Assembly: GCF_003334335.1 (NCBI RefSeq)
Contig: NZ_QOWQ01000021.1
DNA length: 64,000 nt
Direction: 5' to 3' (one strand)
Origin: Escherichia coli
Lineage (GTDB): Bacteria > Pseudomonadota > Gammaproteobacteria > Enterobacterales > Enterobacteriaceae
Shown here piece after piece: positions 9,291-42,726 of this stretch. The notes beneath the pieces were generated by a model. The model was given only the letters and a program-made list of their open reading frames with translations, was not told the origin of the DNA and did no database searches. A program made the position numbers and the translations under genes. The first letter of the stretch is position 1; each line of letters begins with the position of its first letter.

Positions 9291-9491
9291 CTAACTATTT
9301 GTTTTCCGTAATGGAGAAAAAATGAGGCTCTCTTTAGATAATTTGAGGGTTGGTGAAACTTTAGATACCGCTTCCTCAATTCTTTCAGCCATTGCAACTG
9401 AGGGGCGCCTAAAACCCAGAGCCATCTGGTTCAGGTATGCAACGCTAGTCCCAGATAACTGTGCCAGCCGCCTCCATTCATCCGCGCTCAT
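9291..9491 (-). CDS. Cro-like HTH regulator (start taken at the internal Met, MSADEW...)
   Basis: HTH-like segment LAQLSGTSVAYLNQMALGFRRPS; divergent from the cI-like gene across a 138-bp operator region. Confidence 0.6.
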   Translation of the reverse strand: MSADEWRRLAQLSGTSVAYLNQMALGFRRPSVAMAERIEEAVSKVSPTLKLSKESLIFSPLRKTNS

Positions 9492-9549
9492 GACTCCTCT
9501 GATTGAGAGCAATACACTGGACATAAAAAACCCCATACTGTATTGGTTA

Positions 9550-9572
9550 TTAGCAACGTGCTAACATTAGCA
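9550..9572. promoter_or_regulatory. Candidate operator: overlapping inverted repeats TTAGCA-acg-TGCTAA-ca-TTAGCA in the cro/cI divergent region
   Basis: Perfect 6-bp half-sites in inverted orientation; a related site TTAGCA-ttt-TGCTAt lies at 10118-10136 upstream of the next HTH gene. Confidence 0.55.
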
Positions 9573-9629
9573 CATGAGATCACAATACAGCAATACGCTG
9601 TAAAGCATTTAGCTAACAATGAGACAAGC

Positions 9630-10085
9630 ATGGAAATCAAAGATATTCGCTTAAAAAATCTACAGACGGTAATCCAACGCAGCGGCTTAACCCAGACAGA
9701 TCTGGCGTTAAAATGTGAGATATCACCCTCACTTATAAGCCAAATAATGACTAAGCGCAGAAATATGGGAACTGCTCTCGCTAGAAAACTCGAGGGGCGA
9801 CTGAGCCTATCAGAAGGATGGTTTGACATCCCCCACTCATTGCTGGATTCCCCATGGCATCTAGCTAAAATGAGGGAAAAGACTGGTGAGACCACTATTG
9901 ATGAACAGCAACTAACTAAAAGAGAGACTCGACTTATTGAGTTATTCAGACAAATGCCTGAAAGCGAAAAAGACAGGATAATCAGTGAGTTATCTGAAAA
10001 GAAACGTAATTTTGACAAACTACTTGATGAGCTAATGGCTGTTAAAGCATCAAGAATGCCGATCGACAAAGACGAAAATGAATAA
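9630..10085 (+). CDS. cI-like immunity repressor (XRE-family HTH, no S24 peptidase domain)
   Basis: HTH LTQTDLALKCEISPSLISQIM; C-terminal half is acidic/coiled and lacks the Ser-Lys autocleavage motifs; start at ATG 9630 (the track ORF begins upstream at 9543). Confidence 0.7.
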   Translation: MEIKDIRLKNLQTVIQRSGLTQTDLALKCEISPSLISQIMTKRRNMGTALARKLEGRLSLSEGWFDIPHSLLDSPWHLAKMREKTGETTIDEQQLTKRETRLIELFRQMPESEKDRIISELSEKKRNFDKLLDELMAVKASRMPIDKDENE

Positions 10086-10188
10086 TAAATACAACGCACT
10101 ATAAAAAAAACAGCAAACATTAGCATTTTGCTATTGTCAAGAATAACGCATAGCGCTACATTCACCTCAGCAAGTAAAAACAAGTGAG

Positions 10189-10641
10189 GTGAATGTAATG
10201 TTAAATGATAAACATGACTCTTATTCCGTAAACTCTCTGTTGATTTGTGCTCAAGCGGCACTATTAGGCGGTACCGCTTCAAACCATGACGTCATCAACC
10301 TCTTAGATGTTGCACAAGACATCATCTCTTCAACTATGAATTCCTTTACAGATAGTAGCGCTCCCGGCGCTAATGTTGATTTATTTACCAAAGAAGTTAG
10401 CGCTAGTAATTCCCCAGCATTATCTTTCGGTCAACGTATTCTCCAAGCGCGTAAATCAGCAAGTCTTCAACAACATCATATTGCCAGCGGTGCTGGAGTG
10501 ACTGTTCAGGCTGTTTCGTTATGGGAAAATGACTCAGCAATTCCTACTTGCGACAAAATTATCCCATTGGCAAATCTTCTTGGCTGCGATCCAATGTGGT
10601 TACTGACTGGTGCTTATAAACAAAATCAGGAGGAAGCATAA
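10189..10641 (+). CDS. Second HTH (XRE-family) protein with an N-terminal domain of unknown function
   Basis: C-terminal HTH FGQRILQARKSASLQQHHIASGAGVTVQAVSLWE; exact start uncertain. Confidence 0.55.
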   Translation: MNVMLNDKHDSYSVNSLLICAQAALLGGTASNHDVINLLDVAQDIISSTMNSFTDSSAPGANVDLFTKEVSASNSPALSFGQRILQARKSASLQQHHIASGAGVTVQAVSLWENDSAIPTCDKIIPLANLLGCDPMWLLTGAYKQNQEEA

Positions 10642-12609: not shown

Positions 12610-13433
12610 AAAAATTACTTTTTGCTTTAGCCCTTGTTCTGCCGACCATTGGCCTTGTCGGTTGCGATCGCGTTGAGCCTGGTAATGTGGGCATCAAAGT
12701 AAACAAACTGGGCGACGATAAAGGCGTCGGTGAAGTGGTCGGTGTTGGGCGCTACTGGACGGGATGGAACACTGAGGTTTACATCTTCCCGACCTTTAAG
12801 CAGATGAAGACCTACGATGATCCATTCAGTTTCCAGATGAGTGACGGTACAACCATCGGCTATCACATCGGCGTGGCCTACAAAGTTGATCCATCCAAAG
12901 TTACCACAGTCTTTCAGACCTACCGCAAAGGCGTGGACGACATTACCGACACCGACCTGCGCCAGAAGATAGCCGACGCACTCAACCGACTGGCCAGCAA
13001 AATGACCACCGACAAATTTATCGACGGCGGCAAGTCTGAGCTGCTGGATGCAGCTCTTAAAGACATTCAGGAAGAAATGACGCCCATCGGTATTCAGGTA
13101 ATGAGCCTCTCATATGTGGGTAAGCCGGAGTACCCGCCTACTGTTATCGACAGCATTAATGCCAAAGTCACGGCGAACCAGAAAACCCTGCAACGCGAGC
13201 AGGAAGTAAAACAGCGCGAAGCGGAAGCCAACATGTTGCGCGCGGAAGCTGCCGGACAGGCAGATGCGATTCGCACAAAAGCCCAGGCCGAAGCCGATGC
13301 TATTCGTTTACGCGGTGAAGCTCTGCGCCAGAACCCCGGTGTTATGGAGCTGGAAGCCATCAACAAGTGGAACGGTACACTGCCGCAATACATGACCAGC
13401 GGTGCCAACACACCATTTATTCAGGTTAAGTAA
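12606..13433 (+). CDS. SPFH/band-7 (prohibitin/HflKC-like) lipoprotein with C-terminal coiled coil
   Basis: Signal peptide with lipobox LVGC; SPFH-like core; Ala/Glu/Arg-rich heptad region QREAEANMLRAEAAGQADAIR. Confidence 0.7.
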   Translation: MKKLLFALALVLPTIGLVGCDRVEPGNVGIKVNKLGDDKGVGEVVGVGRYWTGWNTEVYIFPTFKQMKTYDDPFSFQMSDGTTIGYHIGVAYKVDPSKVTTVFQTYRKGVDDITDTDLRQKIADALNRLASKMTTDKFIDGGKSELLDAALKDIQEEMTPIGIQVMSLSYVGKPEYPPTVIDSINAKVTANQKTLQREQEVKQREAEANMLRAEAAGQADAIRTKAQAEADAIRLRGEALRQNPGVMELEAINKWNGTLPQYMTSGANTPFIQVK

Positions 13434-13476
13434 TACATATGCCCGGTATTACACGCCGGGCTGTCTGGAGATAAAA

Positions 13477-14226
13477 ATGAATATTGTAACCATCAACAAC
13501 AAACAGTTTCCGGTAATCGAATATCGCGGTCAGCGTGTTGTGACATTTGCAATGATTGATGACGTCCACCAGCGCCCGGAAGGTACCGCCCGTGCTGCGT
13601 TTAACCGCAACCGTTCTCACTTTATCGAAGGGGTGGATTTTCTTGAAATGACTGCGGACGTAATACGTACGGAGTCACTTTCTGATGCCTTTGCCGCGCG
13701 AACTGCCAAAGGGATCATTCTTTTCGAGTCTGGTTACCTGATGTTGACGAAGCCTTTTAACGATGCTCTTGCATGGCAGGTTCAGCGCGAACTGGTTAAC
13801 AGCTATTTCCGAACTCATGCGCCGCTGACGGAAATGGAGATGATCGCTGCAATGGCCGCCGATGCCGTTCGCCAGCAGAAGCGCCTGAGTCATGTTGAAG
13901 AGAAGATCGAAACGGTCACCAAAGCTGTGGAGAACATCAAACGCGGCACAATGCGCACTGGATATGTCGGTTACCGCCAGGTGGTAGCCAAAAGCGGAAT
14001 GAGTGACGCCAAGTGTCGGAATCTGGTCAACGCCTACCACATCCCTACCGACACGCACGAATTTATGACTCCGGACGGTCTGTTGTCTCGCAGGGCTGTC
14101 GTCGAGCTTGAGACATTTATGGCGGCGTTCCACCAAATGATGTCAGAGGCTGAACCACGCGGCACACGCTGGTATCACCCGAAGATGGGGCTTTTCCAGG
14201 TAATCGGATGGGAGGATAAAGCATGA
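13477..14226 (+). CDS. Bro-N/ORF6N-domain protein (antirepressor-like)
   Basis: N-terminus INNKQFPVIEYRGQRVVTFAMIDDVHQRPEGTARAAFNRN resembles the Bro-N/ORF6N family; start taken at ATG 13477. Confidence 0.55.
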   Translation: MNIVTINNKQFPVIEYRGQRVVTFAMIDDVHQRPEGTARAAFNRNRSHFIEGVDFLEMTADVIRTESLSDAFAARTAKGIILFESGYLMLTKPFNDALAWQVQRELVNSYFRTHAPLTEMEMIAAMAADAVRQQKRLSHVEEKIETVTKAVENIKRGTMRTGYVGYRQVVAKSGMSDAKCRNLVNAYHIPTDTHEFMTPDGLLSRRAVVELETFMAAFHQMMSEAEPRGTRWYHPKMGLFQVIGWEDKA

Positions 14227-23593: not shown

Positions 23594-23980
23594 AGATTCC
23601 TCTAAATAAATTCCAGAACACCGAAATCATTGTATAATTAAATACACAACGAATTAACCGCTTGCATAACTCGGCACAACACTGCCTGAAATAATCGATA
23701 AAGAATATGATTTATTACAATGTAATCATTAATTGCTAAGGAATAACCCAGTTGCTATTTAGAATATATATTTATCAGTTTTAGCAATTTAAATCCCATA
23801 ATCAATGTGAATATAAAAAATATTATTAGCACAACGCTATGTTCACTGTCACCCGCTCAACAGATCACGGTTATCGTTCGTTTTTTATACTGCTCAGGGA
23901 TAAAAAAAGGCCCCTGTTGAAATTGCAGGGGCCTGGTACGAGCAAGCATCATATTGGGCGACATGATGCAACGGTAAAAA

Positions 23981-25522: not shown

Positions 25523-27256
25523 GTGAATATTCAGGCTCTTCTCTCAGAAAAAGTCCGTCAGGCCATGATTGCGGCAGGCGCGCCTGCGGATTGCGAACCG
25601 CAGGTTCGTCAGTCAGCAAAAGTTCAGTTCGGCGACTATCAGGCTAACGGCATGATGGCAGTTGCTAAAAAACTGGGTATGGCACCGCGACAATTAGCAG
25701 AGCAGGTGCTGACTCATCTGGATCTTAACGGTATCGCCAGCAAAGTTGAGATCGCCGGTCCAGGCTTTATCAACATTTTCCTTGATCCGGCATTCCTGGC
25801 TGAACATGTTCAGCAGGCGCTGGCGTCCGATCGTCTCGGTGTTTCTACGCCAGAAAAACAGACCATTGTGGTTGACTACTCTGCGCCAAACGTGGCGAAA
25901 GAGATGCATGTCGGTCACCTGCGCTCTACCATTATTGGTGACGCAGCAGTGCGTACTCTGGAGTTCCTCGGTCACAAAGTGATTCGCGCAAACCACGTCG
26001 GCGACTGGGGCACTCAGTTCGGTATGCTGATTGCATGGCTGGAAAAGCAGCAGCAGGAAAACGCCGGTGAAATGGAGCTGGCTGACCTTGAAGGTTTCTA
26101 CCGCGATGCGAAAAAGCATTACGACGAAGATGAAGAGTTTGCCGAGCGTGCACGTAACTACGTGGTAAAACTGCAAAGCGGTGACGAATATTTCCGCGAG
26201 ATGTGGCGCAAACTGGTCGACATCACCATGACGCAGAACCAGATCACCTACGATCGTCTCAACGTGACGCTGACCCGTGATGACGTGATGGGCGAAAGCC
26301 TCTACAACCCAATGCTGCCAGGAATTGTGGCGGATCTCAAAGCCAAAGGTCTGGCAGTAGAAAGCGAAGGGGCGACCGTCGTATTCCTTGATGAGTTTAA
26401 AAACAAGGAAGGCGAACCGATGGGCGTGATCATTCAGAAGAAAGATGGCGGCTATCTCTACACCACCACTGATATCGCCTGTGCGAAATATCGTTATGAA
26501 ACACTGCATGCCGATCGCGTGCTGTATTACATCGACTCCCGTCAGCATCAACACCTGATGCAGGCATGGGCGATCGTCCGTAAAGCAGGCTATGTACCGG
26601 AATCCGTACCGCTGGAACACCACATGTTCGGCATGATGCTGGGTAAAGACGGCAAACCGTTCAAAACCCGCGCGGGTGGTACAGTGAAACTGGCCGATCT
26701 GCTGGATGAAGCCCTGGAACGTGCACGCCGTCTGGTGGCAGAAAAGAACCCGGATATGCCAGCTGACGAGCTGGAAAAACTGGCTAACGCGGTTGGTATT
26801 GGTGCGGTGAAATATGCGGATCTCTCCAAAAACCGCACCACGGACTACATCTTCGACTGGGACAACATGCTGGCGTTTGAGGGTAATACCGCGCCATACA
26901 TGCAGTATGCTTACACGCGTGTATTGTCCGTGTTCCGTAAGGCAGAAATTAACGAAGAGCAACTGGCTGCAGCTCCGGTAATCATCCGTGAAGATCGTGA
27001 AGCGCAACTGGCAGCTCGCCTGCTGCAGTTTGAAGAAACCCTCACCGTGGTTGCCCGTGAAGGCACGCCGCATGTGATGTGTGCTTACCTGTACGATCTG
27101 GCTGGTCTGTTCTCTGGCTTCTACGAGCACTGCCCGATCCTCAGCGCAGAAAACGAAGAAGTGCGTAACAGCCGTCTGAAACTGGCACAACTGACAGCGA
27201 AGACGCTAAAGCTGGGTCTGGATACGCTGGGTATTGAGACAGTAGAGCGTATGTAA
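25523..27256 (+). CDS. argS: Arginine--tRNA ligase
   Basis: 577 aa, GTG start; class I synthetase motifs (HVGH-like HVGHLRS). Confidence 0.95.
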
Positions 27257-42600: not shown

Positions 42601-42726
42601 GACATCATCCTTCCACTGTTGACCATGACAGGATGTTCAGTCGTCAGGCGTTAACGCGCGATTGGGGCAAAAAAAAGCAGCGGTACGTCGTTACCGCTGC
42701 TGGAATGTTGCGCCTCACCGTATCAG

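Follow-up and report, generated by a model that had tools for sequence, protein, structure and literature searches.

Predicted operators of a short, non-cleavable repressor at the two early promoters of a lambdoid prophage in Escherichia coli

Introduction

Which regulator acts on the TTAGCA/TGCTAA half-sites that recur at two promoters in the immunity region of an Escherichia coli prophage? We addressed this question for a 64-kb stretch of DNA (contig NZ_QOWQ01000021.1; the whole stretch is called the window below), which represents a lambdoid prophage integrated at the mlrA/yehV gene of E. coli. The half-sites lie on both sides of a gene for a helix-turn-helix (HTH) protein, HTH1, which has a divergent cro homologue as one neighbor and a second HTH gene, HTH2, as the other. 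Our analysis indicates, with a probability that we put at about 0.8, that the TTAGCA-N3-TGCTAA palindromes are the operators of HTH1, arranged in a right (OR) and a left (OL) set from which the protein would block the cro promoter (PR) and a leftward early promoter (PL). Almost certainly the motifs are the OR and OL sets of an uncharacterised E. coli lambdoid prophage, and control of two divergent early promoters by one repressor is a scheme known from textbooks. The genes concerned are as follows.

9291-9524, minus strand: 77-aa homologue of Cro, opening the rightward early operon (to helicase and primase)
9525-9629: divergent intergenic region between cro and HTH1
9630-10085, plus strand: HTH1, 151 aa, putative immunity repressor (CI analogue)
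10198-10641, plus strand: HTH2, 147 aa, with an XRE-type HTH at the C terminus and, at the N terminus, a conserved domain of unknown function

Results

Operator palindromes on both sides of HTH1

Every 15-mer of the 64-kb window was scored against TTAGCAnnnTGCTAA (maximum 12/12), with the expectation taken from shuffled sequences. Only two 15-mers scored at least 11/12, TTAGCAacgTGCTAA at 9550-9564 (12/12) and TTAGCAtttTGCTAT at 10120-10134 (11/12), and these two flank HTH1; by chance, 0.2 matches of this quality were expected per 64 kb. The half-site TTAGCA itself occurred less often in the window than in shuffles (21 copies, counting the two strands together, compared to 33 ± 5), and 4 of the 21 copies fell within the 217 bp that make up both intergenic regions flanking the gene (binomial P ~8e-7). 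The right site reads TTAGCA (9550-9555), ACG, TGCTAA (9559-9564), CA, TTAGCA (9567-9572), and the left site reads TTAGCA (10120-10125), TTT, TGCTAT (10129-10134). The repetition of these half-sites at two promoters, which the initial annotation of the sequence had pointed out, was thus borne out by the two best 15-mers in 64 kb. That annotation was right about the presence of the left site and slightly loose about its limits, which it gave as 10118-10136. Three weaker sites beyond its list, O-B, O-C, and O-L2, are included below with the predicted promoter elements. Other TTAGCA/TGCTAA pairs, at 2593-2619, 23734-23831, and 25663-25699, were set aside as probable chance occurrences, having a spacing of at least 15 nt or lying in host DNA beyond the int/mlrA junction.

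9550-9564: O-A, OR1-like, strongest of the right set, perfect palindrome TTAGCAacgTGCTAA, 12/12
9564-9572, minus strand: extended -10 of the predicted PR, TGC-TAATGT, hexamer 9569->9564
9587-9601: O-B, weak middle operator, ACAGCAataCGCTGT, 7/12 in the window, overlapping the PR -35
9593->9588, minus strand: predicted PR -35, TTGCTG, inside O-B, 18-bp spacer
9602-9616: O-C, nearest the repressor gene, OR3-like, AAAGCAtttAGCTAA, 9/12
10120-10134: O-L1, left operator, TTAGCAtttTGCTAT, 11/12, one-base overlap with the PL -35
10134-10162, plus strand: PL-like promoter, -35 TTGTCA (10134-10139), 17-bp spacer, -10 TACATT (10157-10162)
10145-10159: O-L2, possible degenerate second left operator, AACGCAtagCGCTAC, 7/12 in the window

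Conservation of the sites in homologous loci

A protein search revealed that the homologues of HTH1 form a small family. We fetched ten loci whose HTH1 proteins are 52-85% identical to that of the window, from Enterobacter, Salmonella, Pantoea, and metagenomes, and all 11 loci of the resulting comparison set (the window plus these ten) share the module of divergent cro and HTH1 followed by HTH2. The initial annotation had staked its proposal on the presence of the palindromes in related prophages, and they were there, at fixed positions in the 11 loci: a site occurs at about -80 and at about -29 from the HTH1 ATG in 11/11 and at about -44 in most. The O-A site lies at -79 to -83 in 11/11 loci with scores of 10-12/12, and in the alignment of the homologous loci its cores AGCA and TGCTAA are invariant. 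At the O-B position (-43 to -45), 7/10 homologous loci score 9-10/12, with an invariant AGCAA core. The O-C site, at -28 to -32 in 11/11 loci (9-10/12, invariant GCTAA), directly adjoins O-B and stops 14 nt short of the HTH1 ATG; it is a probable site of autoregulation.

On the left side, O-L1 is invariant in 11/11 loci except for one C/T difference (TTAGCAyTTTGCTAT), scores 11/12 in each, is placed 18-39 nt after the HTH1 stop, and in 11/11 loci abuts a conserved TTG-17 bp-TACATT promoter. Within this promoter, for which a promoter scan predicted a start site at ~10169 by consensus match, the TTG and GCTACATTC are invariant across loci. The O-L2 site is 25 bp from O-L1, covers the PL spacer together with the three leading bases of the -10, and scores 10-11/12 in relatives, with 10/12 at the corresponding position in one homologous locus (L007); in related viral contigs, a site of at least 10/12 occurs at +25 from O-L1 in 78/96. 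The PL spacer also contains a perfect 8-bp palindrome, TAGCGCTA (10152-10159), which is part of the degenerate O-L2 and was found in several, not all, homologous loci.

The third TTAGCA (9567-9572) behaved differently from the halves of O-A. Only its TTA is near-invariant, and its GCA is not conserved, with TTAATA, TTAACC, or CTAAAT in homologues, and a true half-site was rejected as its main reading. Reversed, it reads TGCTAA, i.e., the TG-n-TAA of an extended -10. A minus-strand promoter (-35 TTGCTr, 17-18 bp spacer, -10 TAAyrT/TAGTAT) is found at a fixed offset from O-A in 11/11 loci; judged by consensus match, this conserved candidate for the cro promoter ranks first on the minus strand in 7/11 loci and no lower than third in the other four. 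Where the hexamer is the weak TAATGT, the upstream TG is present, and the loci L007, L008, and L010, in which the GCA is not conserved, carry the stronger hexamer TAATAT or TAGTAT. The third copy is better explained, from these alignments, as the extended -10 of the predicted cro promoter. Because the GCA is unconserved and the copy coincides with the -10, we read 9550-9572 as one operator plus a promoter element, a revision of the three overlapping half-sites originally described there. The predicted start site of this promoter (~9557) is the point on which O-A is centred. For the repressor gene itself, the plus-strand promoter candidates TGTATT-17-TAACAT, GTGCTA-17-CACAAT, and a TGTAAA/TATAAA box between O-B and O-C were examined, and none was conserved in both position and quality.

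The same operators in prophages with a different repressor

The exact 17-mer TTAGCATTTTGCTATTG, which is O-L1 including the TTG, was found in at least 120 contigs (L017-L136) of the viral database IMG/VR. A few of these occurrences, e.g., that in L029, are chance matches within coding sequence. A handful of the contigs carry HTH1/HTH2, and at least 60 carry a CI protein of 250 aa with an S24-type peptidase domain (S24-CI), the DNA-binding domain of which is 38% identical to that of HTH1. At least 14 of these S24-CI contigs encode a Cro that is 48-51% identical to the window Cro, and no HTH2 homologue was found in any of the at least 60. Their operators follow a 3 + 2 layout, with OR spacings of 33 and 16 bp and the OL pair 25 bp apart in 78/96. 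The nearest named phage is Klebsiella phage KO-TP1, which is uncharacterised.

The HTH1 repressor

A Pfam search matched HTH1 to HTH families only, with HTH_3 at the N terminus and no S24 peptidase domain, and the PHROG match was phrog_5736. Over its first 71-77 residues, HTH1 shares 39% identity with H-19B cI, in the DNA-binding domain of the latter. In contrast to this N-terminal domain, which is not DicA-like, residues 95-139 share 40% identity over 45 aa with the C terminus of DicA (residues 85-129; E 2e-10). The curated DicA model NF007257 gave 39.8 bits against a cut-off of 101, with only residues 85-139 matching the C-terminal part of the model, and HTH1 as a whole protein is thus not a member of the curated DicA family. 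These matches suggest that HTH1 is a domain chimera, as it appears to combine an H-19B-cI-like N terminus with a DicA-like C terminus. In the AlphaFold2 model (mean predicted local distance difference test score of 75), residues 1-66 form a five-helix HTH domain and residues 97-142 a helical hairpin, joined by a disordered linker (71-92). With 151 aa and a helical C terminus in this model, HTH1 falls outside the LexA-like (S24) cleavable CI family and within the class of short (~135-160 aa) HTH repressors that have no cleavage domain. The repressors of this class, DicA and those of the Gifsy phages (GfoR and GftR), are short, non-cleavable, and released by antirepressors (PMC10448788, PMC3121763). 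Judged by its sequence, HTH1 is a CI analogue of this class. The best solved relative by sequence and fold was SPC32H Rep (PDB 5d50). The recognition helix of HTH1, SPSLISQIMTKRRN, is near-invariant across the loci.

The Cro homologue and HTH2

The Cro homologue is 49% identical to H-19B Cro (E 1e-21), and its open reading frame (ORF), with the conserved helix YLNQMALGFRRPS, is present in all related loci. Alignment of homologues placed its start at the ATG at 9524, among ORF-list alternatives of 9536 and 9491. In the RefSeq record of an identical prophage this gene is unannotated, there being no RefSeq gene between 9160 and 9630.

The start of HTH2, initially taken as the GTG at 10189, was corrected to the ATG at 10198 in agreement with RefSeq and the alignment of homologues. 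Pfam assigned HTH_3/HTH_19 to residues 81-143, and the PHROG match was phrog_4836 ("CII-like regulator"). The gene is always found downstream of the HTH1 homologue in the compared loci. The HTH of its product varies widely among loci with identical operators (VTVQAVSLWEN in the window compared to YSDHISDWECG in others), and HTH2 identity is only 62% in contigs that have 97-99% identity in HTH1. Unlike the variable helix of HTH2, the recognition helices of HTH1 and Cro are invariant, as the operators essentially are.

Prophage setting

The prophage region was matched at 99.5-99.9% identity in ~20 of 5,426 complete E. coli genomes, and the carriers of the near-identical prophage include O157 and other Shiga toxin-producing E. 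coli strains. A close relative of the region was absent from the named-phage database, which returned short flank matches only. In strain VR50 the insertion site of the prophage adjoins mlrA (yehV), and the overall gene order is QuuD <- primase <- helicase <- cro | HTH1 -> HTH2 -> ... -> xis -> int. The minus strand there carries small ORFs followed by genes for a DEAD-box helicase, a toprim primase, a hypothetical protein, and the antiterminator QuuD; on the plus strand, HTH1 and HTH2 are followed by ~10 small ORFs and genes for an SPFH protein and an ORF6N protein, with xis and int further along. Because xis and int stand at the far end of the plus-strand operon, the plus strand corresponds to the leftward direction of lambda. 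In lambda, a second operator set, OL, lies at PL, the leftward early promoter downstream of the repressor gene, and the gene order of the prophage places the site at 10120 in this OL/PL position. HTH2 is accordingly the first gene of a leftward PL-like early operon that runs to xis and int. The replication module (5810-8438, minus strand) encodes the DEAD-box helicase and toprim primase, not lambda O/P. These two replication genes belong to the Eru1 type described for some Shiga toxin (Stx) phages (PMC8044961).

A conserved hairpin before HTH2

Upstream of HTH2, and overlapping PL, lies a further conserved element, a predicted hairpin that would sequester the HTH2 ribosome-binding site.

10158-10196, plus strand: RNA hairpin, 5' arm ACATTCACCTCA, 3' arm TGAGGTGAATGT

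The predicted folding energy was -23.1 kcal/mol (z = -7.3), and the element folds similarly in all loci (-12 to -20 kcal/mol). Its 5' arm (10158-10169) overlaps the PL -10, and its 3' arm is the HTH2 Shine-Dalgarno region, which in relatives of the "TTTTC" type also includes the AUG. By anchored pair counting, the hairpin has 12 stacked pairs. Compensatory double changes (A-U/U-A, C-G/U-A) were seen at three of these, and several U-G wobbles fit only a plus-strand RNA; RNAalifold on the plain MAFFT alignment, in which the 3' arms were misaligned, gave a weak consensus. RNAs beginning at the predicted PL start site folded as nearly unstructured molecules. No family in Rfam matched the hairpin, and no terminator-like site was detected between HTH1 and HTH2. 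Analogous hairpins precede HTH2-like genes downstream of cI in an Stx2a (yecE) phage (L015) and in phage ASU11 (L014).

We considered the inverted repeat as a DNA operator for HTH2 and rejected this assignment, as the wobbles fit RNA only and the arms do not co-vary with the HTH2 recognition helix. The window and one homologous locus (L002) have the same arms and different HTH2 helices, and two other loci (L004 and L010) have the same helices and different arms.

Discussion

Who binds the palindromes

The arrangement of the predicted sites is that of a lambdoid switch, with a divergent repressor and cro separated by multiple intergenic operators, and with a second operator set at the leftward early promoter (O-L1, plus O-L2, which is degenerate here and strong in relatives). 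The operators overlap consensus promoters that are position-conserved and whose start sites are predicted. Control of both the switch and the promoter of the downstream gene by one repressor, as the initial annotation proposed, gained strong support from position-conserved sites in the 11 loci and in at least 60 more distant prophages. Because the operator word tracks a CI-type DNA-binding domain and Cro, and not HTH2, the most economical reading is that the repressor and Cro share the operators. From the same comparison, the Cro homologue is a likely second ligand and a likelier competitor than HTH2.

It is unlikely that the palindromes are primarily Cro sites and that HTH1 recognises something else. 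The recognition helix of Cro is conserved to the same degree as the HTH1 helix, H-19B and at least 14 S24-CI prophages have a Cro homologue alongside the same operators, and in lambda Cro binds the operators of CI. Such an account would, however, leave HTH1 without sites, as neither intergenic region has another conserved repeat family to offer it, and a lysogen needs PL repressed, where the strongest conserved site is the TTAGCA palindrome. To our knowledge, the maintenance repressor of every characterised lambdoid phage binds both OR and OL. Use by Cro and use by HTH1 are not exclusive, and shared use is expected. More doubtful still is the other proposal of the initial annotation, that two HTH proteins compete for one half-site, with HTH2 autoregulating its own promoter and rivaling HTH1 at the switch. 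The divergence of the HTH2 helix among loci with identical operators, the drop to 62% identity beside a nearly unchanged HTH1, and the many prophages that have the same operators and no HTH2 homologue all speak against it, despite the clear XRE-type HTH of the protein, the position of its gene immediately downstream of O-L1, and the synteny of the HTH1-HTH2 pair in all homologous loci. We give hardly any credence to the idea that the motifs are chance palindromes or promoter hexamers and not protein operators at all. The conservation of both palindrome halves is not required of a single promoter hexamer, the 6-3-6 palindrome stands at four or five fixed positions in 11 loci, the spacings between sites are kept in at least 60 more distant prophages, and 0.2 matches of at least 11/12 would be expected per 64 kb; these observations outweigh the agreement of TTAGCA with the -35 consensus TTGACA at 4/6 positions and the apparent role of the third copy as a promoter element.

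Several points weigh against HTH1 as the protein that holds both sets. The homologous loci represent only ~6-7 independent lineages. Cro and HTH1 are both conserved, and comparative data cannot separate their site preferences. In the window O-B and O-L2 are poor matches (7/12 each), and the functional sites could be 2 + 1. HTH1's own promoter could not be placed, as no plus-strand candidate is position-conserved across the 11 loci. With respect to induction, no LexA box (CTGT-N8-ACAG) was found in the prophage, the sole match in the window being at 42616, and the candidate antirepressor lies within the operon that HTH1 would repress:

13402-14226, plus strand: ORF6N/KilA-N antirepressor-family gene (phrog_1726), candidate antirepressor

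A model for the switch

With HTH1 as the main ligand, dimers on O-A and O-B would silence the cro/replication operon, as the predicted cro promoter has its -10 next to O-A, its start site at the O-A centre, and its -35 inside O-B. Occupation of O-B and O-C would probably autoregulate repressor transcription. On the other side, HTH1 on O-L1 (and O-L2), i.e., across 10120-10159, would bracket the -35 and -10 of PL and silence the operon from HTH2 to xis-int. The Cro homologue would be expected on the same sites with a different preference. Because HTH1 has no S24 domain, RecA-stimulated autocleavage is not usable for de-repression, which would instead be expected to proceed through an antirepressor, by likeness to DicA/Rem, the Gifsy repressors, and SPC32H Rep/Ant.

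The hairpin may add a second layer. Because no terminator was detected between HTH1 and HTH2, transcripts that read through from the repressor gene would carry the complete hairpin, and HTH2 on these transcripts would be translationally silent. The mRNA from de-repressed PL (+1 at ~10169) would lack the 5' arm, and HTH2 would be translated. We regard this dependence of HTH2 translation on the promoter that made the mRNA as tentative, with odds a little short of even; if true, the hairpin would be a post-transcriptional lock added to operator control.

Comparison with known systems

From sequence comparison, the nearest characterised relatives of this immunity region are H-19B, for Cro, the CI DNA-binding domain, and the geometry of the sites, and DicA of the Qin prophage, for the C-terminal domain and the non-cleavable design. 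Like the window, H-19B has divergent cI-like and cro genes, ~105 bp apart, with three palindromic 15-bp (6-3-6) sites, of which one lies close to cro and the other two adjoin each other on the repressor side; the spacings are 37/15 bp here compared to 33/16 bp in H-19B, and the Cro proteins and repressor DNA-binding domains are 49% and 39% identical, respectively. The H-19B sites have the form TTAyCAnnnTGATAA, so that the half-sites TTAyCA/TGATAA differ from the TTAGCA of the window. The second operator set, at a leftward early promoter 3' of the repressor gene, resembles lambda OL/PL. Unlike the lambda/H-19B type, the window repressor lacks an S24 autocleavage domain, its OL lies only ~35 bp after the repressor stop with no terminator detected between them, and the first PL gene encodes an HTH protein and not an N-type antiterminator.

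DicA resembles HTH1 in being a short repressor (135 aa compared to 151 aa) that has no cleavage domain, in the C-terminal helical segment described above, and in having a divergent cro-like partner. DicA is thought to act at the divergent region and at a promoter just downstream of its own gene (PMC10448788). By inspection, TTAG...CTAA palindromes are present in the Qin divergent region and at dicBp. In K-12 Qin (L137, 1340-1940, dicC-dicA-ydfA), TTAGTcataACTAA and TTAGCATTAGCTAA occur in the dicC/dicA region and GTTAGTCATGGCTAAT occurs within dicBp. These palindromes, TTAGT-N4-ACTAA, are 14 bp long, with a spacing 1 bp shorter than in the 15-bp form of the window. No similarity was found between DicC and the window Cro. 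Unlike Qin and Gifsy, the window prophage has no detected Rem- or GfoA-like small antirepressor, none having been found among the small ORFs of the PL operon. SPC32H Rep-Ant (PDB 5d50), the best structure match, is likewise a non-cleavable phage repressor and was solved with its antirepressor. Its resemblance to HTH1 is weak (E 4e-4) and hardly extends beyond the HTH domain, and the confidence of the model does not allow the C-terminal domains to be compared.

The KO-TP1-type S24-CI prophages of Klebsiella and Enterobacter share with the window the exact 17-mer TTAGCATTTTGCTATTG at PL, three OR and two OL sites, and, where detected, a homologous Cro (48-51%). They differ in having a LexA-like cleavable CI of 250 aa (38% identity in the DNA-binding domain) and in having no HTH2 gene downstream.

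Significance

The analysis provides the operator word TTAGCA-N3-TGCTAA, a map of sites, and the likely promoters of an uncharacterised immunity type, which is also found in related prophages of Enterobacter, Salmonella, and Pantoea. Lambdoid regulation as textbooks describe it is unchanged by these results, and only one element, the hairpin at the first PL gene, may bring in a new regulatory idea. This promoter-linked hairpin and the domain-swapped repressor that would share the operators of cleavable CI proteins are the parts that merit an experiment. Our comparison shows one predicted operator specificity common to repressors of two architectures, the cleavable S24 CI and the short protein that ends in a DicA-like tail. 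Such a domain swap would have changed the induction signal and kept the immunity specificity, and cross-immunity would be predicted between prophages that otherwise differ.

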